IMG/VR virus record: IMGVR_UViG_3300005914_000010
Span: 1-54,041 of that record
Source: a virus
Taxonomy: Duplodnaviria; Caudoviricetes
Length of the DNA: 54,041 nucleotides
Strand: one strand, 5' to 3'
The notes beneath the pieces were generated by a model. That model saw nothing but the letters and a program-made list of their open reading frames with translations. It had not been told where the DNA came from and did no database searches. Positions 16,943-53,026 of the stretch are shown one piece after another. The number at the start of each line of letters is the position of its first letter. The first letter of the stretch is position 1. Made by a program: the position numbers and the translations under genes.

Positions 16943-17521
16943 ATGATTTTAGCAAGAGAGCTACTGAAGGAATTAAGAGATAGAAATATTCCAGCATGTG
17001 TTGCAGGTGGATATGTACGCGATATGATTCTAGGGCGAAAGCCTAAAGACATGGACGTAGTAGTATTCGGTGACCATGTCAATAGAAGAATTATTGATTG
17101 GCATGATGCTGCCACAATACTGACTGATGTAACTCATGAAGTACAAGAAGGCATATTAATAATTACAGACGAGAGAGGAATTGCGTCTTACCCTGTGGAT
17201 ATAATTCAACATTTATTCAAAGGTAAATACAAAGGAATGGATGTAGACTTAATATTCTACAAAGAAGTATACTTTAATGCTACAGCGGTAATCGACTCAT
17301 TCGACATGAGTATCAACCAAGGTTACATTACGGAAAAAGAATTTAAAGCTCCAGATGTAACAACATTAAAACTAAATAATTTAGCTCGTTGTACAGAAGC
17401 TAGAGTGGTAAAAGGTTACAATATGATAATGGATAATTATTGCAAGAATCATAACATATTGATACCTGGAGCTACCAATATGCATCCTACTCCTAAAGGA
17501 GTGACCCCATGCATGAAATGA
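16943..17521 (+). CDS. class II nucleotidyltransferase head domain (CCA-adding/poly(A) polymerase-like)
   Basis: AGGYVRD..GRKPKDMD signature and FDMSINQ (variant of RRDFTIN). Confidence 0.85.
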   Translation: MILARELLKELRDRNIPACVAGGYVRDMILGRKPKDMDVVVFGDHVNRRIIDWHDAATILTDVTHEVQEGILIITDERGIASYPVDIIQHLFKGKYKGMDVDLIFYKEVYFNATAVIDSFDMSINQGYITEKEFKAPDVTTLKLNNLARCTEARVVKGYNMIMDNYCKNHNILIPGATNMHPTPKGVTPCMK

Positions 17522-18543
17522 CCCCACCCGAAGAGTTCGACACTCTATTGTTAGATGGTGATCTGTTATTATTCTCAAGTTGCGCTGCTATTGAATATGG
17601 CAACGAACCTGAGAACGTGCAGTTCAACCAGATTGCTAATAATATGGATGCCCGTATTATGAACATGAAGCGAAGACTTGGTGCTAAACGTATAATTGTA
17701 TTGCTATCTGGTAAGAGGAACTTCAGATTTGTTGTTCAGCCTGACTACAAAGCGAACCGTAAAGATGCTTGGCGACCATTCAATCTTGCCAATGCTGTAG
17801 CATATATGGAGAATCAGTATGAGTGCATCAAAACAGATGGGCTAGAAGCTGATGACTATTGCGCTATACATGGGAGTGAAGATCCAAATAGTGAGTACGG
17901 TGTAACTGTAACATGCACTATTGATAAAGATATTCCTCAGATAAATGGTTGGCACTATAAGTGGGAGACTCAACACGCAGGTGAAAAGTTATTCCACGTT
18001 GGCGGTTATGGTAATCTAAACTGTCAAATTAAGTCAGGTAACAAGAAGAAAATTACTGGCGACGGTAGACGATTCTTCTTCTGGCAACTACTGACAGGTG
18101 ATCCAACAGATGGTATCATGGGTTGCGGCAAGCAGACACGAGGCGTGTATAAAACTGGTAAGAAAGCTGGTGAAGGATACACTAAGCGTGTGGGTGTAGG
18201 TGCTGTACAAGCTTACGAGTTATTACAATATGCACAGACCCCTGCTAAATGTCTACATATCGTTATGGAAGAATACAAGAAAGTATTCAAAGAACAATGG
18301 CAAAGTGAGCTCATTATGAACGGTAGATGTCTACACATGGTAGATACTATTAGTGAAGATGAGAATATGATTCGCCTGTGGACGTGGCATGAAGAAATAA
18401 ACGACAGGTTACTCGCTGCTGAATTTTTAGACCTGACTAAACAGAAAGTATCTGTTGAAACAGTGCTAAAGACATGCAATTATTGCATTGAACAATCATG
18501 GTTCAATATCGACAAACAAGAAATCTGTAGAATGGAGGGGTAG
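17509..18543 (+). CDS. 5'-3' exonuclease (T7 gp6-like)
   Basis: LLDGD, YKANRK, GLEADD, IDKD, GDPTDGI motifs. Confidence 0.92.
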   Translation: MHEMTPPEEFDTLLLDGDLLLFSSCAAIEYGNEPENVQFNQIANNMDARIMNMKRRLGAKRIIVLLSGKRNFRFVVQPDYKANRKDAWRPFNLANAVAYMENQYECIKTDGLEADDYCAIHGSEDPNSEYGVTVTCTIDKDIPQINGWHYKWETQHAGEKLFHVGGYGNLNCQIKSGNKKKITGDGRRFFFWQLLTGDPTDGIMGCGKQTRGVYKTGKKAGEGYTKRVGVGAVQAYELLQYAQTPAKCLHIVMEEYKKVFKEQWQSELIMNGRCLHMVDTISEDENMIRLWTWHEEINDRLLAAEFLDLTKQKVSVETVLKTCNYCIEQSWFNIDKQEICRMEG

Positions 18544-18545
18544 AT

Positions 18546-18788
18546 ATGTTTTTCGTAGTGCACCATCATATAGATCATGATAAATGTAAAGAAATAATAG
18601 CCTTCAGAACAAGGGTAGAATGCGAAGAAGCAATTGGAAATAACGAGTCTACTATCGTAATAGATGCTATAGTAAATTCCTATAATCCAGAAGATATGTT
18701 CAAATTGGGTGGCCTACTGGAGGGCGAAGCTATACCGATGCAACACATATTAAACTTAATAAAGGGACAAGATGTACGGGTGGTGTAA
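18546..18788 (+). CDS. hypothetical protein
   Basis: GGAGG SD. Confidence 0.7.
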   Translation: MFFVVHHHIDHDKCKEIIAFRTRVECEEAIGNNESTIVIDAIVNSYNPEDMFKLGGLLEGEAIPMQHILNLIKGQDVRVV

Positions 18789-19296
18789 GACAGATAAGAT
18801 GTTTGCTAAATGGCTCCAAGGAACTATACGTAAAACATTCTCGAAGCACCCAGCCAGACTAGCCCTGATAGAGAGAAAAAGGTATCAAGCGTTCAATAAA
18901 AATACTGGACGCAAATGCTACCACATAGATTGCGAGAAATGCAACACGTCGATACCTATGGGTAAAGGCGGTGGGACAATAGAAGTTAACCATAAGAACA
19001 CCGTTGGTGGTTTTAAGGATCTTGATGTAGAGAAATTTAAAATATTTGTGGTTAACTTACTACTGGTTAGGGAAGATGAATTAGAATTGTTATGCAGGAG
19101 ATGTCACGGTATAGTAACATATAGCGAGAGATCCGGAATGACAATTGAAGAATCAGCAATTGAGAAGAGAGTTATTAAATTCTGTTCACGACCAGCTGTT
19201 GAACAGAAGAGGCGATTAATTATCGCTGGTATGGAACCGGAAGCAACTGTAGCGAAACGACGTATACAGTTACGTAACTATTTAAGAAACAAATAA
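18772..19296 (+). CDS. HNH/zinc-finger endonuclease
   Basis: CEKC ... EVNH ... LLCRRCH pattern. Confidence 0.75.
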   Translation: MYGWCKTDKMFAKWLQGTIRKTFSKHPARLALIERKRYQAFNKNTGRKCYHIDCEKCNTSIPMGKGGGTIEVNHKNTVGGFKDLDVEKFKIFVVNLLLVREDELELLCRRCHGIVTYSERSGMTIEESAIEKRVIKFCSRPAVEQKRRLIIAGMEPEATVAKRRIQLRNYLRNK

Positions 19297-24498: not shown

Positions 24499-24963
24499 AT
24501 GTCTGAACAATGGAAGGTAATGAAGAATGGCAGATTTAGTGTATCTTCAAAGGGTAAAGTCTATAACTGGATGAAAGATAGATTTGTGATACAATGGCAA
24601 TCCAACGGATATAACAGAGTATCGCTACAGATAGAAGTTAACAAGAGGAAAAAATATTCTGTTGCTAGACTAGTAGCACTGGCCTTCTTACCTAATCCAT
24701 TGAAACTGAAAACAGTCGATCACATAAACGGAATAAGAAATGATAACCGTATTGAGAATTTACAATGGCTATCCCGTGGTGACAATGTTATAAAAGAGCA
24801 AGCAGGGTATTATTCATTAGTAGATCCTAAAGGTAGAACCATTGAGATATTTAATATGGAGGAGTTCTGTAGAAATAATAATCTTGATTCTGCTAATATA
24901 CATAGAGTGATGAAGAGCAGGCAAACTCATCATAGAGGGTGGACTAAATGTCAGAATATATAG
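24499..24963 (+). CDS. free-standing HNH homing endonuclease (NUMOD4-type)
   Basis: VSSKGKV, RLVALAFLPNP, VDHINGIRNDNRIENLQW. Confidence 0.9.
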   Translation: MSEQWKVMKNGRFSVSSKGKVYNWMKDRFVIQWQSNGYNRVSLQIEVNKRKKYSVARLVALAFLPNPLKLKTVDHINGIRNDNRIENLQWLSRGDNVIKEQAGYYSLVDPKGRTIEIFNMEEFCRNNNLDSANIHRVMKSRQTHHRGWTKCQNI

Positions 24964-25838
24964 ACGAACAGTATGACAAGTTCTTAACAAACTGTATGAT
25001 ACAGAATTACGGGGACTTGTTGAAGGTAAGCAGATCTAGAGGCATAAATAGGACTCTCCCATTATTGAGAAATTACTTAATTGGGAATAATAAAGTAAGG
25101 GAAGAATACCTTTTCGCAATAAGAAGCGAGATGGAAGGTCAGAATATACTTGACCACAAGGTCTTGAATTCAATCATTGATGCACAGTTGAAATCTTTCA
25201 CCGAGGGTGAGAAGAAGAATAACAAGATGTACTCCGATGAGATAAAGAAAATCATAACTGAAGGTGACGCTGAAAAGAATGCAGATGGTACCGTAAGGGT
25301 AGCCAACTCAGACAAGAAAGCTCCATCATTAGTAGATAAAATTATCAAAGACCCTCTACTCGTGGATTATACTAAAGTAACAACCGAAGATGCTAACGCT
25401 GTTCGGGATATACTTATGAATGATAAAGACGGTTTTGAACAGTTTAGTAAATGGTGCTTCCAGATTCAAATGAATTTTAAATTCCAGCATCAAGACTTTC
25501 ATTCAGTCATATTCGAGTTCTGTCAGAAAATAGTGCATGGAGAAATAGACAGAGGTATTGTAACGATACCACCGCGACACTCAAAGACGCAAATACTATC
25601 TATATTCTTACCATTGTATTCGTTCTGTTATAATCCAACAAGTCATAATATTATCACATCCTATGCTGATGATGTTGTTCAAGAATCTAGTGGCTATATC
25701 AGGCAAGTGATGACTGATAACTTATTTCAGAAGATATTTCCAACTGTGAGAATTGATCCAAATAAGCGTTCACTAGAACGTTGGGGAACAACCAAAGCGG
25801 GTGTAATGCATGCAGTGCCAACTGGCGGTAAAATGACT
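24948..25838 (+). CDS. terL: terminase large subunit, exon 1 (297 codons)
   Basis: Walker A PPRHSKT; ends ...GGKMT at the group I 5' splice site. Confidence 0.9.
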
Positions 25839-26741
25839 CAACCTTCGGGTCATTTAAAACTTACTTAATTCGGTGAATCTCTCAACACGTAGTGGTGGAG
25901 ACAATACCGAGCTAGGATTCTTTATACGATTATCGAAACCGAGTGTAACGACTATCCCGCAAGGGAGTAAGGCTCAAGTGAGCTTGAAACAGTAAGATTA
26001 GTATGAATCTAATAAGATATAGTCTAATCTTCATAGAAATATGGAGGCTTTATGCTTAAATACAATATAATAAATACGGGTGACATCTTGGAGAATAATC
26101 AAGGTGTAGAGTTGATAGTGTTAGAAATAAAAAGAGCACCAAAAAGGTGTGTAATAGAATTTACTAAAACTAAGACTAAAAAAGAAGTGGCCTTTCAACA
26201 CTTGAGATATGGGAAAGCTAAAGACCCCTATCATAAAGTACGATACGGAGTAGCGTGTTTAGGTAACCCACCGAAATACGCTGTAGAAGATTATAGGCGC
26301 TGGGATAATATGATTGAAAGATGTTATAACGAGCGTGGGCAATACACGAGTTACGAAGGAGCGACTGTCTGTGAGAGATGGTTGTGCTTCGAATACTTCC
26401 TTGAAGATTTGAAAAATATGAATGGTTATGGATTACCCAATAGACATTTAGATAAAGACCTCAAATCTCACAAGAAAATATATAGCTTGGAGAACTGTCA
26501 ATTAATAAATAATCAAGAAAACTCAAGTCATGGAAAGTTCCAAGAACAGCATCAATGGGTAGCAACCAGTGGAGGAGGTACAGTTATAAAAGCTGCAACA
26601 TCCTCAGAGTTAGGAAGATTACTACAATGTGCTGCAAGTACCATTAGGCAGAAAATGACTGATGGCTACTTAGTAAAAGGTTCTTGGAAAATAACACAAG
26701 CATAAACAGTCAAGAGTCACGAACTTGATTTAATATAAATG
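25839..26741 (+). mobile_element. group I self-splicing intron (903 nt)
   Basis: P1 AAATGACT/GGTCATTT with U-G at the splice site; core elements AATTCGGTGAA, AATACCGAGC, AACGACTA, AAGATATAGTC; terminal G; splicing restores GGKMT-GKGAG in frame. Confidence 0.92.
26052..26705 (+). CDS. intron-encoded HNH-like homing endonuclease
   Basis: YRRWDNMIERCY, VCERW..FEYF..D, LDKD..YSLENC; lies downstream of the intron core (P9 region). Confidence 0.85.
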   Translation: MLKYNIINTGDILENNQGVELIVLEIKRAPKRCVIEFTKTKTKKEVAFQHLRYGKAKDPYHKVRYGVACLGNPPKYAVEDYRRWDNMIERCYNERGQYTSYEGATVCERWLCFEYFLEDLKNMNGYGLPNRHLDKDLKSHKKIYSLENCQLINNQENSSHGKFQEQHQWVATSGGGTVIKAATSSELGRLLQCAASTIRQKMTDGYLVKGSWKITQA

Positions 26742-27863
26742 GGAAAAGGGGCAGGGTTACTATCTACTGAATACGCAGGTGTATTTGTAGTAGACGATGC
26801 AATAAAACCCAAAGACGCGTATTCTAATACGATACGAGCAGAAATAAATGACCGTTTCGATAACACTTTTCAATCGCGTTTAGCGAACGATGGAGTTGTA
26901 CAAGATGACAACGGTAATTTGATAGAATGTCCTAGAACACCTATGGTTATAATAATGCAGAGAGTGCATGATGAAGATCTAGTTGGACATATACTAAGAG
27001 GTGGCAGTTCAGATGAATACGTTTGGCTTAATATACCAGGAGTAGTCACGCCAGATTGTGGTACCAAGAAATGGTACGATACTCTTATTAAAGGTCAGGC
27101 CTACACTCATGCAATACCTTATTTGTATGACTTAAAACGTGAAGAACCACTGTCTGCCTTATGGCCAAGCCGTAAAAGCTTGCAATCTCTTTTAAGAATG
27201 AAAGAGTCCAATCCATACACTTTTAATTCACAGTATCTCGGAGATCCAACCGCTAAAGGTACAGGTCTCGTGGACGGTGATTGGTGGGTTGAATACGAAG
27301 AATTAGATAAAGCGAATATAAAGCGTACTTTCATGACGGCTGATACAGCGTCAACGAAGCAAGATTATTCCGATTACTCCATAGTTTGCCTATGGGGAAT
27401 TACTAGGGATAATAAGCTTATCTTAATAGATATTATAATAGGGAAGTGGGAGACACCAGAATTGAAAATAGAATTGATTAAATTCTGGAAGAAACACACG
27501 GATAATTTTGATGTCAATTTCCCCTTGTTATTGCCTACGGCATTATACATGGAGGATAAATCAAGTGGACAGTTCTTAAACCAACAGTTTGCTAGAGATG
27601 GCGCGATCAGAGTTCTACCAATTCCCAAAGATAAGAGCTCAGGGGATAAAGTCGCTAGATTCCTTAATACTGTACCTTATTGGGCACAGGAAAGAATATT
27701 AATGCCAGCAGAACATAAGCATAAAGCCCACATAATGCGGGAAACATTGAATATGACAGGCCTCGGCAGCGGTACAGGACACGATGATTTCATCGACAAT
27801 GTATCGGACGCTGTAGTAGTTGCATTTAGTGCTCCCTCAGCAAATTATGATTTATGGGCATAG
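26742..27863 (+). CDS. terL: terminase large subunit, exon 2
   Basis: Walker B VFVVDD, MQRVH, nuclease DTA and HDDFID. Confidence 0.9.
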   Translation, partial: GKGAGLLSTEYAGVFVVDDAIKPKDAYSNTIRAEINDRFDNTFQSRLANDGVVQDDNGNLIECPRTPMVIIMQRVHDEDLVGHILRGGSSDEYVWLNIPGVVTPDCGTKKWYDTLIKGQAYTHAIPYLYDLKREEPLSALWPSRKSLQSLLRMKESNPYTFNSQYLGDPTAKGTGLVDGDWWVEYEELDKANIKRTFMTADTASTKQDYSDYSIVCLWGITRDNKLILIDIIIGKWETPELKIELIKFWKKHTDNFDVNFPLLLPTALYMEDKSSGQFLNQQFARDGAIRVLPIPKDKSSGDKVARFLNTVPYWAQERILMPAEHKHKAHIMRETLNMTGLGSGTGHDDFIDNVSDAVVVAFSAPSANYDLWA

Positions 27864-33850: not shown

Positions 33851-35266
33851 ATGAGTATACCTATTTCTCATGTAGTAAGTGTCAATATCTCATTGTCGCC
33901 TACTGCAATCCCACTTAGAGGTTTCGGTCAACTAGCAATGGTTACTGACGAAACACCTGAAGTGGCTGGAGGCTTTAATGTAATTGAACGTATTCGTACG
34001 TATGGTTCGTTAGCCGCTGTCAATGTAGACTTCTTGACAGGTACTGAAGTATCTAACGCTGCGACATCTTACTATGCCCAAAAAGCAGAACTATTTTCTG
34101 TAGTATTAGCTTCGGATAGCGTAACAGCTGGTAAGTTAATCGGTGGACCAACTGATACTTTCGCGAATATTAAATTGATAACCACCGGAACACTAGATAT
34201 AACAGTAGACGGTGTACTGGACGAAATCACTGGGCTAGACTTTAGCGCAGCAGCTGATGAGGATGCTGTAGCAGTTATACTATCAACTGCACTTACAGAT
34301 GCCACTTGCTTATACGTTGGTACAATCTTTGAAATCACGTCTGACACAACTGGAGTAACTTCAACAGTAAGCTTCCCCTCAATCAGTGATGCTGCGACAG
34401 CATTAGGATTAGTGGTAGGCGCTTCAACTGAAGATGGCCTAGGCATTGAAACTCCTGCGGAAGCTTTAGCAGCTGCATACGCAATAACTAGAGACTTCTA
34501 TGGCGTAGTACTAAACCGTAAATGGCGTGATGATGATGCTAGTATAGACGTAGCGACATGGGTCGAAGCAAGTGAACGAGTATTCTTCAACACTTCCAAT
34601 AACCCTAGCAGCTTAACCTCTAGCACTAATCACATCATTGCAGACCTAAAAGCTATGACATTAGATCGTACCTTATCCTCTTACAGTTCTACACCTGCTG
34701 AATACCCTTCAGCCTCTGTTGCTGGCAGAGCATTCATTGTCAACTTTGAAGGTACTAATACTACCATTACGTTGAACTTGAAACAAGGTCCAACCATCAC
34801 TGTTGAAGATATGACTTTAAACCAGAAGTTAAATCTTGAGTCACATAACGGTAACGCTTTCGTTGTAATAACAGGTGTGAACGTTTACTCAGACTCCCGC
34901 ATGTCAAGTGCTAAATGGTTTGACTCTATTCACGGTACGGATTGGTTAGTAAACCGTGCTGAGACAGATGTATTCAATGTGAAGTTTCAATCTAATACTA
35001 AGATACCTTACACAGATGCTGGTGTTACAGTGTTGTATCAGGCCTTAGAAGGTGCATTACGACAGAGTGTAACAAATGGTTTAGTTGCACCTGGCAATGA
35101 TTTGGAAGGTAACTTCATGCCATTAGGTTATGAAATAACTGTTATTCCAGTCTCACAGGTTAGCCCTGCGGACAAAACGAACCGTATTTATCGTGGTCTA
35201 AGCTTCAAAGCTGCAGGTGCCAATGCCATTCATGGTAGTGTTATCTCTGGCGATTTTAACGGTTAA
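33851..35266 (+). CDS. contractile tail sheath (DUF3383-like)
   Basis: IPISHVVSV, KIPYTDAG, GAIH-type C-terminus. Confidence 0.9.
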   Translation: MSIPISHVVSVNISLSPTAIPLRGFGQLAMVTDETPEVAGGFNVIERIRTYGSLAAVNVDFLTGTEVSNAATSYYAQKAELFSVVLASDSVTAGKLIGGPTDTFANIKLITTGTLDITVDGVLDEITGLDFSAAADEDAVAVILSTALTDATCLYVGTIFEITSDTTGVTSTVSFPSISDAATALGLVVGASTEDGLGIETPAEALAAAYAITRDFYGVVLNRKWRDDDASIDVATWVEASERVFFNTSNNPSSLTSSTNHIIADLKAMTLDRTLSSYSSTPAEYPSASVAGRAFIVNFEGTNTTITLNLKQGPTITVEDMTLNQKLNLESHNGNAFVVITGVNVYSDSRMSSAKWFDSIHGTDWLVNRAETDVFNVKFQSNTKIPYTDAGVTVLYQALEGALRQSVTNGLVAPGNDLEGNFMPLGYEITVIPVSQVSPADKTNRIYRGLSFKAAGANAIHGSVISGDFNG

Positions 35267-35277
35267 GGAATAAGTAA

Positions 35278-35733
35278 ATGAAACAGTATAGTTTTTATAA
35301 CGTAGACTTATTAGTCGACGGTGTCACAATGGATGGTTATTCAGATAGCGCTGCAATCATAACCGCATCTCGTGCTGCTCCACAACATGGCAAGGTGATG
35401 GATGCGCGTGGTAAGATGGTAACAATAACATCTGCTGATAAATCAGGTGTAGTTACATTTGATCTATTACAAACATCTGATAGTAACACATTTATGCAAA
35501 CCTTAGCTTTAGCGTCTCATGATGCTGGAACTTCTGGTGCATCAGATGTGTTCCTACCTGTTCAAGTAATGTTGAATGACAAGATGGGTAAGACAGTAGT
35601 AACAGGTGTTAATGGTTTCATTACCATGCAACCTGGTATTGTCCGTGGTACTGGTATAGCAACCAATACTTGGGTAATGGAATTCGAACAGATATGGATC
35701 CTTCGTGGTCTATCTGAAACTGTAGGCGTATAA
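35278..35733 (+). CDS. tail tube protein (DUF3277-like)
   Basis: YSF, DKSG.VT..LLQTSDSN motif; follows the sheath gene. Confidence 0.85.
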   Translation: MKQYSFYNVDLLVDGVTMDGYSDSAAIITASRAAPQHGKVMDARGKMVTITSADKSGVVTFDLLQTSDSNTFMQTLALASHDAGTSGASDVFLPVQVMLNDKMGKTVVTGVNGFITMQPGIVRGTGIATNTWVMEFEQIWILRGLSETVGV

Positions 35734-35748: not shown

Positions 35749-36153
35749 ATGGCAGCTAAAGATATAACTGGGATTATCAATGAAAAACCCGTGTTTGTCA
35801 AACAGTGGCCTGCTACCAAAGCCTTAGAGAATCTTAGTAAAGCTCTTTCAACATTCGGTCCTAGGATTGGTCCGTTTGTTGAAGGTAACTTTCTAATGGG
35901 TGACATAGTCTCCCTCTTAGATACCTCGGAAAGCGAAGTAGTAGTATCATTATTAAAAGAATTTGTATCTTCTGCAAGAATGGATGGTATAGAAGTAACA
36001 CCAGTACTGTTCGATAAGTACTATACAGGTGATTTATTATTTGTATTCAAAATATTCTCGTTCGTTTGTGAAGTGCAGTACAAAGATTTTTTCGAGCAAG
36101 GGCAGCGTCTAAAAGAAACCCGCCCAGAGCAAACTCAGAAGACGAAGAATTAG
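35749..36153 (+). CDS. tail assembly chaperone
   Basis: between tube and tape measure; KDFF at the slippery site. Confidence 0.8.
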   Translation: MAAKDITGIINEKPVFVKQWPATKALENLSKALSTFGPRIGPFVEGNFLMGDIVSLLDTSESEVVVSLLKEFVSSARMDGIEVTPVLFDKYYTGDLLFVFKIFSFVCEVQYKDFFEQGQRLKETRPEQTQKTKN

Positions 36154-36356
36154 ATCCTCTGGAAATAAAACCACTTGGCCTTCAAGAATTATTTCCGAAT
36201 ATAGATTTCTATTTGTATCGACCAATGATTGAAGAGCCGAGATTATGCGATCTACATCAATTACAAGACGGCACTTATAGTCTATATGACTTGTATATGT
36301 TTCATGAGTTACTAGACTTGAGGGAGCATATAAAAGAATCTAACAAGAAGGTTTAA
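35749..36356 (+). CDS. tail assembly chaperone, -1 frameshift extended form (~202 aa)
   Basis: T TTT TTC heptamer at 36087-36093; -1 frame open to TAA 36354-36356, ending 3 nt before the next ATG. Confidence 0.75.
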
Positions 36357-36359
36357 ATT

Positions 36360-39300
36360 ATGTCGACAAACAAAGGAACACTAACTTTAGGTGGTGGAAG
36401 AAGTAGAAAACCTAGAGTTAAGAAAATGCCAGAGTGGTTAGATAACCCTACTAAAAAATATGGCTACAGTAGTACAGATTCTAATACGCCACAACAAGAT
36501 AGAAGTAGAAGCTTAAGTTCAGGCTCCGGCGTAAATTCAGGTTTCTTTGGAGAAGATGATAAAGAGCTATCCCAAATGGGATGGCACTCTGATTCAGTTA
36601 TCGAAACATTTAACTCAACTACACCAGAACAAATAGCCGCTAGTAGAATATCAGGTGGTGGGCCAAGTGCAATACAATCATTTATATCTAATGCTGCAGA
36701 AGCTAAGAAGCTATTGGCATCAGGTATAAGCCCAATTTCATTACAGCATAGTAATATACCCTCTGAGAAATTAGCTTACATGGCTAACTACGCAGGACTA
36801 GATATAGGGAAAGTATCAAGAGAGGTAGCTGCAGGAGCTAATAGAAGCTGGCCTAGTAGTGAAATGAATAATCCTGATAATGACAAAGATAGTGATACAC
36901 CAGAGCAAGACTTCAATAAGGCACTAACTCAAGCTCAGATTAACGGGACGGAGTATAGAGAGAAAGGCTTCAATAGATCTGTGAAAGGAGAAACCATAGG
37001 TGGTATAGATCAACCATCTATTAAGTCACCCACAGATTATATGTTATCGACCTTCGGAGCTATGACTATATCTAAGGATATAGGTAAGCAACAAGTAGGT
37101 GCTCCTGATTCCATATCAATGGGGCTACAGGAGAAATATGATAAAAAGGTTGCCAACTCAACTAGAGCGTTAGCGAACCTTGCTGACTTATATCTACCAA
37201 AAGGCTCAGGTAGGGGATTGCAAAATGAAGTCATTACCGCGTTAGGCCAAATACTACCTCAAAGTATATCGAACGTAGGCTTCAACATGGCTGGTAACCC
37301 TGACGCACAGATACCGTGGTCAAGCGCTTTACCCATGGCTAATCAATTAGCTGTGTCTAAATCAACTTTAAGCATAATGAATAACCCTACGGTTAACTAC
37401 GCTAACAGACCTGGAATAAATGCTAGCATAAAGAATGTGAAGCATCTATTCAATACTTCAAATGAAGGTGGTCTATCAAGAAAAAGAAGTACCGACTACT
37501 TTGCAGCGAAATATATGGCTGATGAATTAGCAGCAGGTGGTATGGATGTTAGACATACTGTTCTAAGTCAAAATTCGAGTAGAGACCATATGTATGAGTT
37601 CAGAGTAACAACTGACATACGTGAACAAATGAAACAAGGTATGGAGTTGTTAGGTATGAATTCAGAAGATATGAGAGACCCAAAGAAAGTAAAACTACTA
37701 AAAGAGACTATAGAGTCAGGATTAGATAGTGATAAAGCTATAGTTGCAAGTGCCAAGGCATCAACAAATGCTAGAACGAATGTAGCTCACACAATGGAAG
37801 AACAAATGGCCGCTAGTCAAATGGCGCATAGGTCTTTCGTTGCAGCGCGTGAACAAGAAAAGATAATGACCCAGAGTGCTCTCAACTCAGAGATGGTAGC
37901 CAAACCTGACAGTCAACAGTCAAACAGACTATTGACCCTATCTGAGAAACTAGATGCTGCTATAAATTCGCCAGTATCCAGAATAAATAGTATAAACTCG
38001 ATGTTTGGAAGAGACGTCGACGGCAAATATAGGACACCCTTAACACCTATTGAGAATAGTTCAATACAATCTCTGACTGGTAATATGCCTCCATCAGGCG
38101 GACCAAATCCGCATTCTAGACCTCCTAGAGTAGGAGGCGGTACTAAAAATACACCATCGATAGGGAGAGAGGGTACATCGTTATTATCACCAGCTGATGC
38201 ATTGGCAAAGTACCAAAAGAACAATCCCCATATGACAGGATTCGTTGGTGATGGTAAGAATGCTTACGGTGAAGTGGATGAAGGCCAACATGCACTATGG
38301 CAAGCCGCTAGGAAAGGAAAACTATCTTCTTCTATAGCTGCTGGCATGGCGGGTGAACTATCTGCAGATACAGATAAAGCGATTAGTAAGGTTATAAGGT
38401 CAGGCCTCGGTATAAAAGAGAAAGACTTCGATGGAAACTCTTTTACAGAATCAGGCAACAAATTAGAACCTTTGGCACTAGATTGGTATAGACGTACTCG
38501 TGACTCTTCGACCTTTGAAACTGGACATATGGAAAACAGAAACATGCCAGGGCAATCAACTACCCCTGATGCAATGGCAGATGGTGGACGACGAGCAGTA
38601 GAAGTTAAGTCTAGAGATAGTCTTATGGATCCCAACAATCTAAAAGATAGTGAACTAAAAGCTTTTAGAAAGTACAATATGCAGATGCAACATCAGATGT
38701 ATATTACAGACAATGCAAGTGCTGATCTAGTTCAAGTCAGAAGGGGGAGTGGCAATAAGAACCAACTCTTCAACATGACTGGTAACGACAAAGAAAACTT
38801 TCGTTCAGATACTGTAAGTCGTGACCAAGAACTAATTGGTAGAATGTCACCTGTATGGAACAGAGTTGGAGCTAACGCTGAGAAGATAGCGGGCCTTGGC
38901 AAGAAAGAACAGGACGCTTTAGCTAAAGCTGTTGAAACAGGTAACATAAAATCTTTCGAGAAATTGTCTGCTAAGCACGGTCTAGATGATGCAGTCGTTG
39001 GTGGCGCATTAACTAAAGCTGGTGGCGGTGGAGGTGGGAGTGGCGGTGACGGAAAAGACTTAATAGACACTATTGGTGCTCAACATGGGCCAACCTCTTT
39101 TACTGGCGTTGCTAAAACTGCATTATCCAGAACAAGAACCGGCCGTGGTCTCAATGTAGCTAGCATAATAGCTGGCATAGCATGGGACGGAGCCAAATCT
39201 CTAAACGACACTAACCTTAACACGGCTTTCCAAGCAAAATCCTCTGGAATGTCAGAAGATATGTGGATAGGCCAAAGAAAAAGATTGGCAGGGAGTGGTT

Positions 39301-39998
39301 ATCAGACTGGTGCTCAAGCAGCCCAAGATATAAAATCTCTTGGATTGGCCACAGGCGGAATGAGCTTAGGATTCACTGAAGGCGCTGAACGTATTGTAGG
39401 AGGTACAAGAGGTTTAATAAACTTCAACGATCTAGGTACATATGAAGGCGACGCAGCAGGATTGATGGCTAAATTTAAAGAGAAAGCGGCTATAAGATTC
39501 GGTACTGGGGAAGATGCTTTAAGAAAAACAGCTGCTATGGCTGAACAGTCTGGACTTAACGGACTAGTAGCAACAGAGCAAAATGATGATGACTTAAAGA
39601 ACATGAATGAAGCCTTCCTGAGAATGGATTCTAATCTAAAGAAACTGGCTAAGAGTGCTGGTGAAGGATTCGGGGATAGTATAGCTTCCATAGCAGATAG
39701 TGCTGCTTGGTTAGTAGGCTTGTTTGGTGGAGATGTAGGTGGAGATGGCCCAGAGACAGTTCTGAGCAATACTTCTAGTGGTAAATTATCAGCTAGGTTA
39801 AATGGGATAAGTGACGCGGATATAACTAAATACAAGAACATGAGTCAAGAAGCGTCAAAACTAACAGAACAAGAGAATAAAGCCAAAAACGCTGAAGTCA
39901 CTATCAAATTAACTAGTGAGGCTAAGAGATTATTCTTACTAGATAACGACGGTAGAGCCAACTCAACTGAGGCATACGGTAACAACAATGGGTGGTAG
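36360..39998 (+). CDS. tape-measure-position protein with internal YqaJ/lambda-exonuclease domain
   Basis: position after the chaperones; W..AR.GKL.SS, GNKLEP.A..WY, TPDA, VEVKS, YNMQMQHQM motifs at aa ~640-840. Confidence 0.8.
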   Translation: MSTNKGTLTLGGGRSRKPRVKKMPEWLDNPTKKYGYSSTDSNTPQQDRSRSLSSGSGVNSGFFGEDDKELSQMGWHSDSVIETFNSTTPEQIAASRISGGGPSAIQSFISNAAEAKKLLASGISPISLQHSNIPSEKLAYMANYAGLDIGKVSREVAAGANRSWPSSEMNNPDNDKDSDTPEQDFNKALTQAQINGTEYREKGFNRSVKGETIGGIDQPSIKSPTDYMLSTFGAMTISKDIGKQQVGAPDSISMGLQEKYDKKVANSTRALANLADLYLPKGSGRGLQNEVITALGQILPQSISNVGFNMAGNPDAQIPWSSALPMANQLAVSKSTLSIMNNPTVNYANRPGINASIKNVKHLFNTSNEGGLSRKRSTDYFAAKYMADELAAGGMDVRHTVLSQNSSRDHMYEFRVTTDIREQMKQGMELLGMNSEDMRDPKKVKLLKETIESGLDSDKAIVASAKASTNARTNVAHTMEEQMAASQMAHRSFVAAREQEKIMTQSALNSEMVAKPDSQQSNRLLTLSEKLDAAINSPVSRINSINSMFGRDVDGKYRTPLTPIENSSIQSLTGNMPPSGGPNPHSRPPRVGGGTKNTPSIGREGTSLLSPADALAKYQKNNPHMTGFVGDGKNAYGEVDEGQHALWQAARKGKLSSSIAAGMAGELSADTDKAISKVIRSGLGIKEKDFDGNSFTESGNKLEPLALDWYRRTRDSSTFETGHMENRNMPGQSTTPDAMADGGRRAVEVKSRDSLMDPNNLKDSELKAFRKYNMQMQHQMYITDNASADLVQVRRGSGNKNQLFNMTGNDKENFRSDTVSRDQELIGRMSPVWNRVGANAEKIAGLGKKEQDALAKAVETGNIKSFEKLSAKHGLDDAVVGGALTKAGGGGGGSGGDGKDLIDTIGAQHGPTSFTGVAKTALSRTRTGRGLNVASIIAGIAWDGAKSLNDTNLNTAFQAKSSGMSEDMWIGQRKRLAGSGYQTGAQAAQDIKSLGLATGGMSLGFTEGAERIVGGTRGLINFNDLGTYEGDAAGLMAKFKEKAAIRFGTGEDALRKTAAMAEQSGLNGLVATEQNDDDLKNMNEAFLRMDSNLKKLAKSAGEGFGDSIASIADSAAWLVGLFGGDVGGDGPETVLSNTSSGKLSARLNGISDADITKYKNMSQEASKLTEQENKAKNAEVTIKLTSEAKRLFLLDNDGRANSTEAYGNNNGW

Positions 39999-40001
39999 AG
40001 T

Positions 40002-41093
40002 ATGTATAAACGAAGAATAAAATTAGTTGCTACAGACTTCGTCACGAAGGAAGAATTATTCTCTACAGCAGAGCATAGAATTTCATTCTCAGTCGATGTC
40101 AATATCGCCCAAGGTATGTCTAATGCAACTGTCATAATATACAATCTATCTGATGATGAGACAAAAGATCTAACCAGAGCAGACTTAGAACCTATAGGTG
40201 ATAATGACGCAACAAATAATAGAACACTGAATAAAATACGTATTCAGTTATTTGCTGGTTACGAAGACGATATAGACGGTGAACTGAGTGGTGCCCAATT
40301 GATGATAGAGGGGTTTGTAATGAACTCCACTACTGTTAAAAAGCTACCTAGTAGACTAACCTATCTGTATATAATTGCTTATGGTAGTAACATACTTATA
40401 AACAAATACGAGTCCTTCACTGTGAAAGATAGTGACAAGTTCACACTGCAAGATGTAATAACCAAGATAGGTGTATCTGCAGGTTATGATAAGGAAGCAA
40501 TAGACTTTGACTCAGTGGACCCAGTATTCTTAGGCGAGAAAACCATAGAGCATCTCAGAGGCAAGACTTTTCAGAATGATGAGAGAGGAATGTTTAAAGT
40601 CTTAGATGAACTAGCTAATGAATTCCAATTCTCATGGAGCATAAGAGCTAAGGGTATAGGAATATACCCTATCTTGAAAGATACTAAAATTGATTCACAT
40701 GAATTCGGATACTTACAGAAGAACGGCACTGCCTTAGTAATTGACCCTATCAGAGTTAAAGGAACACCCATAGCAGGCATGGCTACATTGGAAATAGAAT
40801 ACGCGTTAGATGCAACACTATTCCCAGGAACAGTTATAGATGTAGGTGAGATTCAAGGTAACAGTTATAACGACTCCTTACCTTCTAAAGGATTAATAGA
40901 CTACACTGCTGTAGGTAAGCCTGTATTCTACTCTGATGACGTAGCGAGATACGCTGTATTCCAGAAGTATATGTTATGGAGAGTAATACATAAAGGTGAT
41001 ACGCATGGAGACCAATGGAGTTCAACATTGGTTTGTAAAGTACCATCAGCAGGATACACAGCAGATGGGGAACTTAATGTCAAGACTAAATGA
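40002..41093 (+). CDS. baseplate hub protein
   Basis: IYNLS, LFAGY, HKGDTHG.QW motifs. Confidence 0.75.
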   Translation: MYKRRIKLVATDFVTKEELFSTAEHRISFSVDVNIAQGMSNATVIIYNLSDDETKDLTRADLEPIGDNDATNNRTLNKIRIQLFAGYEDDIDGELSGAQLMIEGFVMNSTTVKKLPSRLTYLYIIAYGSNILINKYESFTVKDSDKFTLQDVITKIGVSAGYDKEAIDFDSVDPVFLGEKTIEHLRGKTFQNDERGMFKVLDELANEFQFSWSIRAKGIGIYPILKDTKIDSHEFGYLQKNGTALVIDPIRVKGTPIAGMATLEIEYALDATLFPGTVIDVGEIQGNSYNDSLPSKGLIDYTAVGKPVFYSDDVARYAVFQKYMLWRVIHKGDTHGDQWSSTLVCKVPSAGYTADGELNVKTK

Positions 41094-41784
41094 ATGTTTA
41101 ATAATATGGGAGACTGTATTAGGGAAAGGCGATTGGAATGCTTTAGCATTTGATGGTGTCAGAATGGAATCCCATACGGGGGAGAACATAGTAACCTCTT
41201 ACCCTGTATCTACTGGCTTCAATGTCAGTGATCATACTATAAGACAGAACTCTAAGATACAATTAGATGCTATAATATCAAGTGTCAGTATGCCATCAGC
41301 CACACTTAGGCAAGGTTACGATGCAGCCTTCACTACCCTATGTAACGCTGCAGCTGCTGTGACTGGTGGTACACCTACTGACTTAAGTGGTGCAAACCTA
41401 TTTGGTAGATTGAAATATGACAATGATAATATTAAATTATTAGAAAACAGTCCTATAGATGACTTCCTAAATGCTACTATAAATAACTTAACTGCGCAAG
41501 TATCACTAGAGAAAGTGCAAAGAGCCTTCAGCGAAGTAGTAGACCTCACTCGTAGCGGCACTATAGTTCATCTGTTGACGATGCGTGGAATGTACGTCAA
41601 CTGCGTGATACGTAATTACGGTGTATCAAACGATGTGAGCAATTCTTATAGTTTACCCATATCGTTAAGCATAGAACAGTTAGTTGTAGTAAGCAACCTT
41701 CAAAGAGGCAATGTACTTTCAGCTACCAGTGATAGCAACGGTGCTGGTGTATTAGATGATCTAGTTAAAGTGTGGGGTATATAA
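41077..41784 (+). CDS. baseplate/tail tube initiator (Dit-like) protein
   Basis: ESH....VTSYPV.TG..VSDH motif; GGGG SD before 41077. Confidence 0.75.
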   Translation: MSRLNECLIIWETVLGKGDWNALAFDGVRMESHTGENIVTSYPVSTGFNVSDHTIRQNSKIQLDAIISSVSMPSATLRQGYDAAFTTLCNAAAAVTGGTPTDLSGANLFGRLKYDNDNIKLLENSPIDDFLNATINNLTAQVSLEKVQRAFSEVVDLTRSGTIVHLLTMRGMYVNCVIRNYGVSNDVSNSYSLPISLSIEQLVVVSNLQRGNVLSATSDSNGAGVLDDLVKVWGI

Positions 41785-42137
41785 TGGCTTCAACAAAAGA
41801 AGAATTCTTAGCACTTGATCATAAGTTAGTTCCGTTCAGTGCAAGATTTAATACGCAATTTCTATACGAAAGTATAACTTATACCCTTGGTAAAATATAT
41901 TTCAATGAATCAATTGGCTGTCTAATGACTTCCTTGACATGGAGAATTGATACAACAAATTACTCTGTGTATGGGATAGCGATACAAACAGGAGTCAATA
42001 TAGTGAAACAACATGACACTAAATTACCCTCCTTAGTCGCAGTAAACTTAAACGATCGAGGTGCAAACGTAACCGAGATAACAGATTTGAGAATGTATAT
42101 CATTCTGGAATTTGATAGTAACTTCCTAGGAGCTTAA
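41784..42137 (+). CDS. baseplate-associated protein
   Basis: position; TAATG coupling. Confidence 0.6.
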   Translation: MASTKEEFLALDHKLVPFSARFNTQFLYESITYTLGKIYFNESIGCLMTSLTWRIDTTNYSVYGIAIQTGVNIVKQHDTKLPSLVAVNLNDRGANVTEITDLRMYIILEFDSNFLGA

Positions 42138-48615: not shown

Positions 48616-48963
48616 ATGAATTTATCAAAATGGAAAGACGACTTTTGTCTTAGAGTAAGATTAAATAAGATTTACATATGCCCTGCTGCTATTAGATTTA
48701 TTAACAACCCCATGTCTGCTGGAAGTAAAAAGAAATATGTTAGAGGTGTATGCTCCTTTCTAAGGGCACAAGGTCTACCAAAAGAGCTTGAGAAATTTGA
48801 GCATTTGTTTGTAGAAAAGATGACTGAAGTAGTTGTAGAAGTAACTCCTGAAGTAACTCCTGAAGTAACTCCTGAAGTAACTCCTGAAGTAATTCCTGAA
48901 GTAACTCCTGAAGTAACTCCTGAAGTAACTGAAGAAAAGACTACCGAAGACGAAGAAGATTAA
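48616..48963 (+). CDS. hypothetical protein with EVTP repeat tail
   Basis: ORF track; tandem repeat. Confidence 0.7.
   Translation: MNLSKWKDDFCLRVRLNKIYICPAAIRFINNPMSAGSKKKYVRGVCSFLRAQGLPKELEKFEHLFVEKMTEVVVEVTPEVTPEVTPEVTPEVIPEVTPEVTPEVTEEKTTEDEED
48838..48930 (+). repeat. 12-bp tandem repeat GAAGTAACTCCT x7.75
   Basis: counted directly; one copy has a C>T change. Confidence 0.95.
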
Positions 48964-50605: not shown

Positions 50606-53026
50606 ATGGATTACTCCTTATTTTTTGACGGGTCCGGGTCCCTCGGTATTTCGGGGGTTAAATTACATACCAAGAGTTTTCTTACCAATTTCGAGTACGA
50701 ACTAACCGCTTTCTTTGGAAATACTGGTTATGATAAATTAACTATTGTAGGTAAAAACTTTAGTAGTAATGGTTTCATAAGCCTAACTCCCACAGCTTGC
50801 GCTATAAAACATGGTAACAAACTCGGCACCATTGTTACCATTCCTATTACCCTTAGTTTTAATGACACTACACAAGTCATTAAAATAACTAGAAACGGTA
50901 GCAACTATACAGTTCTCAGTGATGGCGTTTCAATCGGTTCTAAAACAGCCTCACCATCGAATAATGAAAATTTACTAGACCGTATAGGTTCATCTGGATT
51001 TTCAGACAACAGCGACGGCAACAGAATACAAAGACTGATATACCGCGAGGGTTCACCATTAGTAGATGTCCACGACTGGGATGCTAGTTCTAGTGGCGGT
51101 ACGGGTACTACGATTACCGACTCAATTGGTGGCAATACCGCAACTCAGATAGGTACATGGCCAGCAGATGATAGCGAGTGGTATTTAGAAGGAGGGGCAG
51201 CCGTTCCTGTCGGAGTCCCGTCAATCGGTACGATCACAAAAACCGAGACAACCGCTTCAATCCCTTGGACTTACACAGATGGCGACGAAACCGGTTTTGA
51301 ATATCGACTAGATGCAGGGACTATTATAGATGCAGGGACAAGCCCATTATCATTAACAGGGCTGACAGCCAGCACTTCGTACGATGTTGAAATTAGGGCG
51401 TATAACGCAACTGGTGATGGTAGTTGGTCGAGTGTTACAGCGTTTACTACTGAAGATGCGGCAGTGGTTACAGAGGGTAACTTAGCAGTACAAATGGTAA
51501 GTAATACGGTATCTGCGATTGGTATAATAGGCCAAGCCGTGACAGGTCAACTGGATAAGTCATTAGATATAAATGAGCTTAACTCAGACGGTATAATAGG
51601 CCAGTCTATATTAGGGGGCCTAGACGGGTTACTTGAATCAGATAACTTATTTTCTCAAGGGGAAATAGGTCAAGCGATATCGGGATCTCTCAGTGAGTTA
51701 CTAAACAGCAGCTCTTTAACATCAGTGGGTGTTATAGGAAGTGATATAGTAGGTGTGCTAAGTGGGCAGATAAGTAATAGTACCCTTATAGCAGGGGGTT
51801 CCATTGGACAAGCTATAGTAGGGGCACTAAGTAGACAACTTGATATCAATATATCAAATATAGATGGAACCGTAGGGTCGGCAATACTGGGTTCTATGAA
51901 TGTAGAATTCGATGACACTATATTGATATCTGACGGTACTATTGGTCAGGCTATAGCAGGCTCTATAAGTGAATTATTAGAAGACAATACATCTTCTATA
52001 TCAGGAGTTGTAGGTCAAGCTATTACTGGAGCATTGAACAAACTATTAGATAATAGTACTCTTACTTCGAGTGGAATTATAGGCCAAGCCATAACAGGTG
52101 CTCTAAATGAATTACTAACAAGTAACAAATTAACGGCAAGTGGTGTTATAGGTCAAGCAATAGTAGGCTCGTTGAGTGAGCTACTAGAAGATAATAATCC
52201 ATCCATAGCTGGGGTTGTAGGTGAAGCTATAGTTGCAACACTAAATGCCCAACTAGATGGTGATACTATAGATGCCAATGGTGTCATAGGGCAAGCAATA
52301 CTAGGAGCGTTAAGTGAACAACTAGACGTAAATACACTTAGCTCAACTGGTGTAGTAGGCAACGCCATTGCAGGCTCTTTAAGCATACAATTAGATGATA
52401 CTATATTGTTAGCTGACGGTATAATAGGCCAAGCAATAAATGCTACCTTGAATGCAAACAACGCTGATAATAAATCTACTATAATTGGGACTATTGGACA
52501 AGCAATATTAGGAGCATTAAGTGAACAACTCGATGTAGATATACTTAGTGCCACTGGTACTATAGGTAGTGACATTGCTGGTTCACTTAGTATTAAATTA
52601 GATAACAACATATTATTAGCGAATGGAGTGATAGGTCAAGCAATAATTGCTACTCTAAATACTACAAATGCTGATAATACATCTGTTATAATTGGGACTA
52701 TTGGGCAAGCTATTGCAGGTACTTTGGAAATAGATGCAGAAGATGTTAACCTAGAAGCACTTGGTGTTACAGGAATAATATCTGGAAGTGTCAATATCCA
52801 GCTAGAAGATGGTACATTATTATCCGCTGGCTTCTTAGGCTTGATAACTGTAGGCTGTAATGATATATCAATAAGTTTCGAATTTGTAAACCCTGATATA
52901 AATATTGACGCTGGGCAACTAATAAGTTTCGAATTTGTAAACCCTGATATAAATATTGACGCTGGGCAACTAATAAGCAACAAAGAAGAAGCAGACATAA
53001 ATATAGGAGATGTACTATGCGTTTAA
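50606..53026 (+). CDS. virion appendage protein: lectin/LamG-like domain, FN3 domain, 23-aa repeat stalk
   Basis: FN3 signature W..Y..LTGL..T.Y.VEIRA.N..G.GSWS; ~18 GxIGQAIxG repeats. Confidence 0.75.
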   Translation: MDYSLFFDGSGSLGISGVKLHTKSFLTNFEYELTAFFGNTGYDKLTIVGKNFSSNGFISLTPTACAIKHGNKLGTIVTIPITLSFNDTTQVIKITRNGSNYTVLSDGVSIGSKTASPSNNENLLDRIGSSGFSDNSDGNRIQRLIYREGSPLVDVHDWDASSSGGTGTTITDSIGGNTATQIGTWPADDSEWYLEGGAAVPVGVPSIGTITKTETTASIPWTYTDGDETGFEYRLDAGTIIDAGTSPLSLTGLTASTSYDVEIRAYNATGDGSWSSVTAFTTEDAAVVTEGNLAVQMVSNTVSAIGIIGQAVTGQLDKSLDINELNSDGIIGQSILGGLDGLLESDNLFSQGEIGQAISGSLSELLNSSSLTSVGVIGSDIVGVLSGQISNSTLIAGGSIGQAIVGALSRQLDINISNIDGTVGSAILGSMNVEFDDTILISDGTIGQAIAGSISELLEDNTSSISGVVGQAITGALNKLLDNSTLTSSGIIGQAITGALNELLTSNKLTASGVIGQAIVGSLSELLEDNNPSIAGVVGEAIVATLNAQLDGDTIDANGVIGQAILGALSEQLDVNTLSSTGVVGNAIAGSLSIQLDDTILLADGIIGQAINATLNANNADNKSTIIGTIGQAILGALSEQLDVDILSATGTIGSDIAGSLSIKLDNNILLANGVIGQAIIATLNTTNADNTSVIIGTIGQAIAGTLEIDAEDVNLEALGVTGIISGSVNIQLEDGTLLSAGFLGLITVGCNDISISFEFVNPDINIDAGQLISFEFVNPDINIDAGQLISNKEEADINIGDVLCV
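51521..52760 (+). repeat. ~18 degenerate 69-bp (23-aa) coding repeats
   Basis: G[IVT][IV]GQAIxGxL recurs every 23 residues. Confidence 0.85.
52870..52977 (+). repeat. exact 51-bp tandem duplication
   Basis: 52870-52920 equals 52921-52971 (ISFEFVNPDINIDAGQL x2). Confidence 0.95.

Follow-up and report, generated by a model that had tools for sequence, protein, structure and literature searches.

What is a DNA nuclease doing inside a protein of the phage tail? This question is raised by a viral genome of 54,041 bp, IMG/VR record IMGVR_UViG_3300005914_000010, which is referred to below, at its full length, as the window. The window is a complete Chaseviridae-like myophage genome, and one of its tail genes encodes a protein of 1212 amino acids (aa), assigned here as the tail tape measure protein (TMP), which contains a nuclease domain of the YqaJ/lambda-exonuclease family in its interior. 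A previous inspection of the nucleotide letters (hereafter the sequence-only reading) had placed such a domain at 38283-38870, corresponding to residues 642-837, and had proposed that an exonuclease delivered with the virion could resect the incoming genome ends for circularisation via terminal repeats, or expose single-stranded DNA for the RNA polymerase (RNAP), before any gene expression.

A lambda-exonuclease fold inside a tail protein

The gene, the domain and the codons of the predicted active site, the latter placed by alignment to LHK-Exo, are located in the window as follows:

36360..39998, plus strand: tape measure protein gene (P0001), 1212 aa, between the frameshifted chaperone and the hub; matched by phrog_149 over its full length
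38184..38984, plus strand: nuclease domain of lambda-exonuclease/YqaJ fold, aa ~609-875, delimited by profiles, structure model and fold comparison
38310..38312, plus strand: codon of R651, the Arg of the W..R.G..T/SS motif, invariant in 25/25 sequences
38466..38468, plus strand: codon of E703, the acidic residue of the LEP motif
38568..38570, plus strand: codon of D737, the PD of PD-(D/E)xK
38601..38609, plus strand: codons of E748-V-K750, the ExK of PD-(D/E)xK

Residues ~609-875 are a PD-(D/E)xK domain of the YqaJ/lambda-exonuclease family, as confirmed by profile, motif and fold. The Pfam family YqaJ (PF09588) matches aa 647-784 (38298-38711) over profile positions 2-148 of 150 with 52.3 bits and E=9.9e-14, the cut-off for this family being 22 bits, and phrog_149, a profile of 1242 positions labelled 'exonuclease', matches the whole 1212-aa protein with E=2.9e-83. 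Moreover, a profile built from 25 family members and compared with PDB sequences retrieves LHK-Exo (3syy) at E=4.5e-23 and lambda exonuclease at E=7e-4, and the NCBIfam model TIGR03033 also matches, with E=2.3e-12. A structure model of residues 600-1212, generated with AlphaFold2 (AF2) on a 25-row alignment, shows block means of the predicted local distance difference test (pLDDT) of ~85-98 at model residues 11-260 (aa ~609-860), which fall off by aa ~875. The folded domain is thus somewhat larger than the aa ~640-840 delimited in the sequence-only reading, which had nevertheless put the motifs in the right place. When this model was compared with the PDB by Foldseek, the ten best matches were all YqaJ/lambda-exonuclease structures, with E values of 1e-5 to 7e-4 and target TM scores of 0.63-0.73 for 3k93, 3sz4/3syy and lambda exonuclease, while VIA-align superimposed it on LHK-Exo 3syy with Z 17.1 and a root-mean-square deviation of 3.4 over 187/194 residues, and on lambda exonuclease 3slp with Z 15.4. 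The identification first made from the letters alone is therefore borne out by Pfam, the family profile, Foldseek and VIA-align alike. A chance occurrence of a PD-(D/E)xK-like string of motifs was considered and rejected, because the evidence from profiles, fold and conservation speaks against it.

The nuclease domain carries an insertion of ~20 aa at aa ~795-815. A C-terminal helix of the pattern KAVExGNIxSFEKLS (aa 856-868, window 38925-38963), in which 10 of 13 positions are invariant among 16 sequences, is absent from stand-alone YqaJ proteins, and it may serve as an interface or link the nuclease to the helical body of the TMP. Prediction of a homotrimer from three copies of aa 620-880 gave a score of 0.16 against a mark of 0.42, a result that is neutral on the existence of a ring like that of lambda exonuclease.

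Conservation of the active site

The motif series quoted in the sequence-only reading is present in full in the translation (aa 647-780), with WQAARKGKLSSS at aa 647-658, GNKLEPLALDWY at aa 699-710, TTPDA at 734-738, VEVKS at 747-751 and YNMQMQHQM at 772-780. In the alignment to LHK-Exo, the residues E703, D737 and E748-x-K750 fall on the LEP, PD and E-I-K of that enzyme, and R651 falls on its W..R.G..T.S motif, so that the catalytic D, E and K, correctly described before as intact, correspond to D737, E748 and K750.

Conservation was counted over 25 aligned long proteins that are 18-51% identical to the window protein. Residues W647, R651, E703, D737, E748, Q775, Q777 and Q779 are invariant (25/25), and K750 is kept in 24/25 sequences of the global alignment, the exception (P0036) reading L-E-L-K when realigned locally. 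None of the proteins of GJ1, ST32, 4HA13, ZPAH14, VPs20, SppYZU05 and PVN03 has lost the D, the E-x-K or the upstream acidic residue. Moreover, the nuclease is the most conserved segment of the protein in the 25-member alignment, with a mean identity to the window protein of 41% compared with 11-32% for the other segments, and it is the best conserved piece of the TMP in 14/14 loci where tblastn detects it. Judged by these alignments and by the structure model, the nuclease domain is very probably catalytically competent, and the pattern of sequence conservation indicates that its active site is under selection.

Architecture of the remaining protein

Outside the nuclease, the protein is composed of four further parts:

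36360..37964, plus strand: N-terminal half, aa 1-535, with helical modules conserved at aa ~76-165 and 226-440
37965..38177, plus strand: linker rich in Pro, Gly and Ser, aa 536-606, pLDDT <50 (S 14%, P 14%, G 14%)
38985..39203, plus strand: Gly-rich linker with GGGGGGSGG, aa 876-948, pLDDT ~30-39 (Gly 25%)
39204..39995, plus strand: C-terminal tape-measure region, aa 949-1212, with a helical module at aa ~950-1080 and terminal beta strands

The models outside the nuclease consist of helices and disordered linkers. The Pro/Gly and GGGGGGSGG linkers that had been noticed on either side of the domain coincide with the regions of low pLDDT, and, as modelled, these two flexible stretches of ~70 residues tether the nuclease to the helical parts of the TMP. 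The N-terminal half is predicted by AF2 as mostly helical, with pLDDT of 75-92 in its two modules, where D388 is invariant in 25/25 sequences and D250, Y278, D396 and D437 are nearly so; these modules (aa 76-165 and 226-440) have no Pfam match, and a fold search with the model of aa 1-640 (mean pLDDT 61.5) returned no PDB match at E<=0.001. For the helical module of the C-terminal region (model residues ~350-528), the only matches were generic helical bundles (Z<=7.2); the two most hydrophobic stretches of 19 residues, 930-948 and 1108-1126, lie respectively at or near the start of this region and within it. A homologue search with aa 900-1212 recovered the protein itself and its closest relative only, and no TMP relative free of the nuclease.

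Identity of the tape measure and its gene neighbourhood

The genes and signals around the long gene are the following:

33851..35266, plus strand: tail sheath gene (phrog_205, E=6.5e-98)
35278..35733, plus strand: tail tube gene (phrog_280, E=1.2e-34), syntenic with the annotated tail tube of 4HA13
35749..36153, plus strand: tail assembly chaperone (G-like), zero-frame product of 134 aa (phrog_11820, E=1.3e-38)
36087..36093, plus strand: slippery heptamer T_TTT_TTC of a programmed -1 frameshift, in the correct zero-frame register
36072..36356, plus strand: -1 frame extension giving a GT-like product of ~202 aa, which ends 4 nt before the ATG of the tape measure gene
40002..41093, plus strand: baseplate hub gene (phrog_196, E=5.3e-28)

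A chaperone with a -1 frameshift classically precedes the tape measure genes of phages. In the window, the genes are ordered as completion, sheath, tube, chaperone, the 1212-aa gene, hub, spike and wedge, and the interval between chaperone and hub holds a single gene, namely the 1212-aa open reading frame (ORF). The heptamer T_TTT_TTC occurs in the same frame, followed by a -1 ORF that runs up to the start of the long gene, in 11/11 loci including phiEcoM-GJ1, and the -1 frame stays open for 58-76 codons beyond the chaperone stop. These loci are the window and ten relatives, after duplicates and the truncated loci L013, L014, L015, L026 and L027 were left out. The chaperone is found upstream in 14/15 related loci and the hub downstream in 13/15, the misses being contig ends; three IMG/VR loci among these 15 duplicate GenBank phages. 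The position between the tail chaperones and the hub, which had been noticed from the sequence, is thus substantiated by PHROG matches, synteny and the shared frameshift.

With regard to the scaling of TMP length with tail length, the long proteins of the family have 1150-1398 aa, and Chaseviridae tails span 116-166 nm. Neighbours of aa 60-560 in the ESM Atlas are clusters named as tape measures with scores of 0.84-0.87, below the 0.9 level, which makes them a lead only. Taken together, gene context and orthology to proteins that other authors have named tape measures identify the 1212-aa protein, at the level of sequence, as the tail tape measure protein.

Beyond the hub, the next tail protein is encoded by two ORFs in different frames, 40996-41784 (phrog_29701 positions 4-228) and 41772-42137 (positions 267-375 of 375), and its counterpart in ZPAH14 is one gene of ~400 aa. 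A sequencing error, a frameshift or a genuine division of the gene could account for this split.

Relatives, distribution and presence in virions

The presence of a YqaJ domain in the tape measure is not peculiar to the window phage and, on the evidence of the related sequences, is a trait of the whole family Chaseviridae, including both subfamilies. In phiEcoM-GJ1, gp62 (1239 aa) contains YqaJ at 459-591 (E=4e-11) and an SLT transglycosylase at 1045-1149, and the 'tail tape measure protein' of 4HA13 (1204 aa) contains YqaJ at 453-589 (E=7e-10) and SLT at 1025-1117. The hhalign comparison makes GJ1 gp62 an orthologue of the window protein over the stretch that begins at the nuclease and includes the C-terminal region (97.5% probability, E=5.6e-12); the window protein lacks the SLT domain that both relatives have. 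The sequence-only reading had stated that tape measures usually carry muralytic rather than nuclease domains, but the two cargoes are not alternatives, since the TMPs of GJ1 and 4HA13 carry both, SLT being an additional domain of the Cleopatravirinae orthologues.

A search with the domain alone against 1.84 billion representative proteins gave 42 matches at E<=1e-3. Among the 16 best representative clusters (E<=2e-10), 14 have 1150-1398 aa, and the remaining two are an 802-aa fragment identical to the window and a 4090-aa protein that matches in short repeated stretches only. Two more long proteins appear near E=1e-6 to 1e-5, and the other 24 of the 42 matches are stand-alone proteins of 132-332 aa, the exonucleases of ~200 aa being met first at E ~1e-6. 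Within IMG/VR, 19 loci were confirmed, ten of them with the long form, and the nine others encode YqaJ-type ORFs, eight of 194-231 aa (one cut by a contig end) and one of 443 aa. None of the 179 pattern matches in species-representative bacterial and archaeal genomes encodes a relative, with no sign of prophage or tailocin copies, which is expected because these phages are strictly lytic.

The sequence-only reading made its proposal depend on a profile or structural match and on presence in virions, and neither observation speaks against it: profile and fold match, and the YqaJ-bearing orthologue of 4HA13 is a virion protein. The twelve most abundant proteins of CsCl-purified virions of this phage were listed after liquid chromatography with tandem mass spectrometry, and the TMP takes second place among them; for 15 proteins, the reported sequence coverage is 50% or more (PMC9699118). 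The designation of GJ1 gp62 as 'virion structural protein' is a RefSeq product name only.

The sequence-only reading had left aside whether relatives were already annotated in this manner, and they are. PHROG 149 is named 'exonuclease', RefSeq uses 'exonuclease / yqaJ' for ZPAH14 and 'exonuclease' for LA93P1 and LA93P2, NCBI uses 'YqaJ viral recombinase family protein', and UniProt/BFVD lists a 'YqaJ viral recombinase domain-containing protein' for pAh6-C. The names given to the orthologous gene are inconsistent from record to record, ranging over 'exonuclease', 'tail fiber', 'tape measure', 'virion structural protein' and 'hypothetical'. The annotation of the domain is therefore not new in itself, whereas the link between exonuclease and tape measure is apparently undescribed: a literature search combining Chaseviridae, YqaJ or nuclease domain with tape measure found neither a description of a nuclease inside a tape measure nor a treatment of the role it might have in that place, which is not proof of absence.

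Proposed function

In an intact virion, the tape measure protein occupies the tail tube, and sheath contraction drives it out before the DNA, as in the case of lambda gpH, T5 pb2 and T4 gp29. In this setting, the reading preferred here, on balance and with some reserve, is that the domain is an active 5'-3' exonuclease that would be delivered with the virion and act on a DNA end, as suggested by the conserved catalytic residues and the structure model. On contraction of the sheath, the TMP would leave the tail first, with the nuclease ahead of the genome, and the few TMP copies of each virion would bring it to the entry site before phage genes are expressed. The domain would reach the entry site at the periplasm or inner membrane, probably its cytoplasmic face, and there it would digest a double-stranded DNA end in the 5'-3' direction with the help of Mg2+, or at least bind the 5' phosphate of such an end. 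The likeliest substrate would be the leading end of the phage's own genome, since a double-stranded end with a 5' phosphate is the only natural substrate of such enzymes and the leading terminus is the nearest one.

The consequences would depend on the ends of the genome. Chaseviridae genomes have direct terminal repeats of ~3 kb, and that of 4HA13 measures 3120 bp (PMC9699118). Limited 5' resection within such a repeat would leave a 3' tail that could anneal to, or invade, the other repeat, giving a circle or a concatemer, and the enzyme would shield the end from RecBCD for as long as it stays loaded. Complementary 3' tails produced by resection of both termini are the classical route to circles and concatemers; end resection followed by annealing of the terminal repeats, as the sequence-only reading had imagined it, is mechanistically sound. 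A more specific version, regarded as unlikely, would have several TMP-borne domains assembled as a ring at the cytoplasmic mouth of the channel around the genome end that emerges first, where they would resect the repeat and block RecBCD. In that version, circularisation of the genome, or its replication primed by recombination, would be the work of a parental tail protein, would precede transcription and would need no phage annealing protein. The other role proposed earlier, exposure of single-stranded DNA for the RNAP, has little support, because the T7-like RNAP is encoded at the left end of the genome and is not known to be packaged, and the GJ1 record marks a putative host sigma70 promoter upstream of the RNAP gene.

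Several observations weigh against delivery of an active exonuclease to the DNA end. Regarding the protein itself, the match to the NCBIfam model TIGR03033 ('lambda-exonuclease family'; E=2.3e-12, 47.3 bits) lies below the curated cut-off of 68.05, and the curated TMP profiles of Pfam (PF10145, PF20155 and PF06791) and the TMP models of NCBIfam gave no match at E<=1 and E<=0.1, respectively, although the lack of a TMP match weighs little because TMP families are very diverse. The virion evidence stems from relatives, namely the 4HA13 orthologue, and not from the window phage. With respect to the mechanism, processive digestion of the leading ~3 kb would render the early region single-stranded, including the RNAP gene (1264-3393; 655-2601 in GJ1), and a separate FEN/T7-gp6-like exonuclease is already encoded in the genome (17509-18543). 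The neighbours of the nuclease are tail genes, none of them an annealing protein, and a scan of 40 of the ~70 plus-strand ORFs with >=70 aa gave no PHROG for an annealing protein of the RecT/Erf/Red-beta type, small unscanned ORFs lying outside this result. Moreover, three folded domains of ~29 kDa are a tight fit in a tail-tube lumen of ~4 nm; the domain may be stored unfolded or in single file, and it may also be removed by cleavage at the flanking linkers.

A further point of this kind concerns the TMPs of GJ1 and ST32 (locus L002, 38231-41947, and locus L027, 884-4606), which are mosaic. Their identity reaches 90-100% over residues 1-150 and 700-1000 but is only 40-70% in the central block of aa ~150-700, which contains the nuclease, although the phages are otherwise near-identical. 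From the sequences, the central block looks like an exchanged module, and this divergence fits a role in an arms race at least as well as a housekeeping role; the catalytic residues are retained in both phages despite the mosaic centre.

Alternative explanations

Among the alternatives, the one that survives best, in itself rather unlikely, is that the domain works as a clamp or pilot, gripping the 5'-phosphorylated leading end so that the TMP drags the DNA behind it and shields it from RecBCD with little or no digestion. The TMP and the genome end adjoin in the tail, virion proteins that protect DNA ends exist (T4 gp2 and Mu N), the flexible linkers would let the domain reach the DNA end, and R651, the counterpart of the Arg in the LHK-Exo motif W..R.G..T/SS, is invariant in 25/25 sequences. 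However, conservation extends to all the catalytic residues, among them the general-base Lys and the metal-binding D and E, across proteins of 18-51% overall identity, and binding alone would not call for that.

A weapon of counter-defence or against the host, in which the ejected nuclease would hit DNA other than that of the phage (host or plasmid ends, the DNA of defence systems or a competitor genome), is quite improbable. It draws on the GJ1/ST32 pair, where divergence is concentrated in the nuclease-bearing centre, as mosaicism is typical of genes in conflict; the ST32 and 'flopper' papers also record a low similarity of the TMP gene (flopper PMC7552041), multidomain effectors with nucleases packaged in virions are a known theme (PMC5512222), and host defences are described as operating at the TMP and the injection site (bioRxiv 2025.11.03.685801). 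Nevertheless, within the clade of the window no part of the protein is better conserved than this domain, which is thus not the most variable one, and few TMP copies enter per infection. Enzymes of the lambda-exonuclease type also require a double-stranded end, which is scarce in a healthy host.

It is more improbable still that the nuclease acts late in the producing cell, where host DNA or intermediates of replication or recombination would be its target, and is then clipped at the linkers or carried along as an inert passenger. Two long disordered linkers do flank the domain, and TMPs of other phages are processed, e.g., lambda gpH to H*; yet the excision of a central domain would cut the TMP in two, and an exonuclease is already available in the replication module. 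The rank of the 4HA13 TMP in purified virions, together with the sequence coverage obtained there, is also hard to square with such clipping, although this is unproven (PMC9699118).

Finally, the idea that the protein is a separate ejected or internal tail protein, with the tail length set by another factor, is scarcely credible: the missing TMP profile matches, a length of ~180 nm at 1.5 A for each of the 1212 aa, longer than most tails of the family (116-166 nm), and the labels 'probable T4 gp5 analog' for gp62 in the GJ1 record and 'tail fiber' in the ST32 paper point that way, but this is the sole gene between the frameshifted chaperone and the hub, subtraction of the ~270-aa nuclease and ~140 aa of linkers would leave ~800 aa or ~120 nm, inside the family range, the language-model neighbours of aa 60-560 are tape-measure clusters (0.84-0.87, a lead only), and the authors of the 4HA13 (PMC9699118) and 'flopper' (PMC7552041) reports name it tape measure.

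If an active exonuclease is indeed delivered with the virion, the tail would bring a DNA-processing activity to the entry site before phage gene expression, and the ring version would represent the first case of a DNA-processing enzyme delivered by a tail, and with it a new class of cargo for tape measures. This bears on the early fate of linear genomes with terminal redundancy, namely how they withstand RecBCD during the first seconds of infection and become competent for replication, as well as on the storage and passage of a folded 29-kDa domain in the tail tube. Cultured members of the family exist, and 'flopper' was isolated on E. coli K-12 MG1655 (PMC7552041).

Genome and family placement

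CheckV rates the record at a completeness of 100%. The features applied as marks of Chaseviridae were a myovirus tail module, a T7-like single-subunit RNAP, unidirectional genes and a genome of 52-56 kb, and the window shows all of them. The RNAP (phrog_414) is encoded at the left end, at window 1264-3393, essentially all long ORFs lie on the plus strand, with positive GC skew along the full window, and the length is 54,041 bp. PHROG scans of the ORFs identified primase/helicase, DNA polymerase, ligase, both ribonucleotide reductase subunits and, in the replication module, the FEN/T7-gp6-like 5'-3' exonuclease (17509-18543, phrog_107). They also found the portal and, in two pieces, the terminase large subunit as packaging genes, and a contractile-tail module with tail completion, sheath, tube, chaperone, the 1212-aa ORF, hub and wedge proteins. 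When the 1212-aa protein was searched by tblastn against 50,697 phage records, 28 were matched, every one with an identity <36%, and these belong to phages of Aeromonas (21), Shewanella (5) and Vibrio (2). Five of these records were inspected, and all are classified as Chaseviridae, mostly Nefertitivirinae. Because these best TMP matches are all Chaseviridae and all below 36% identity, the window phage is either a distant new member of Chaseviridae or a close neighbour of this family.

Some other features of the genome deserve mention. The terminase large subunit is split over two ORFs, 24948-25868 (phrog_38 positions 203-399) and 26739-27863 (phrog_38 positions 403-707), between which lies an HNH endonuclease ORF (26052-26705); the terminase is a single gene in relatives such as ZPAH14 and GJ1, and the arrangement looks like an intron bearing a homing endonuclease or a split gene. 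In total, four ORFs resembling HNH homing endonucleases are scattered over the replication and packaging modules (15723-16187, 18772-19296, 24499-24963 and 26052-26705), in agreement with phiEcoM-GJ1, whose annotation includes several HNH genes. A 12-nt unit (CTGAAGTAACTC-like) is repeated in tandem in ~9 in-register copies at window 48800-48955, inside the ORF 48616-48963, which thus encodes a short peptide repeat. An ORF of 806 aa (50606-53026), with no PHROG match, contains three diverged repeats of 207 nt (51803-52699) and an exact tandem duplication of 51 nt (52870-52971), and it may encode a distal tail fibre or receptor-binding protein, judged by its position.

Comparison with known systems

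Lambda exonuclease, LHK-Exo and YqaJ (PF09588; 1avq, 3slp, 3syy, 3k93) share with the window domain the same fold (Z 15-17) and the motifs W..R.G..T/SS, LE, PD, ExK and QxQ. Known members of this family are free-standing proteins of ~200-230 aa that belong to recombination modules, usually beside an annealing protein of the RecT/Red-beta type. In contrast, the window domain lies inside a virion tail protein of 1212 aa, its gene neighbourhood contains no annealing partner, and it differs further by its insertion of ~20 aa and its conserved extra C-terminal helix. An example of the usual arrangement, with the exonuclease in a recombination module beside the annealing protein and encoded apart from the tape measure, has been described (PMC10434257).

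The enzyme-bearing TMPs of GJ1 (gp62) and 4HA13 resemble the window protein in being long helical tape measures that follow a frameshifted chaperone and carry globular enzymes as cargo. The TMP cargoes described so far target the cell wall, such as the SLT domains of GJ1 and 4HA13, and other phages have Rpf-like or peptidase motifs in this position, whereas the cargo in the window is a DNA exonuclease, and thus a different one.

Entry together with the DNA and action before gene expression are shared with T4 gp2, Mu N, P1 Dar, the N4 virion RNAP and the 'polyvalent proteins'. However, T4 gp2, Mu N, P1 Dar and the N4 virion RNAP are proteins packaged in the head or located in the neck, not tape measures, and the accessible text of the polyvalent-protein survey contains no occurrence of YqaJ, lambda exonuclease or tape measure (PMC5512222). 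A functional parallel within the window is the phage's own T7 gp6/FEN-like exonuclease, which likewise works in the 5'-3' direction but has an unrelated fold and belongs to an unrelated family, being expressed from the replication module and not carried in the virion.

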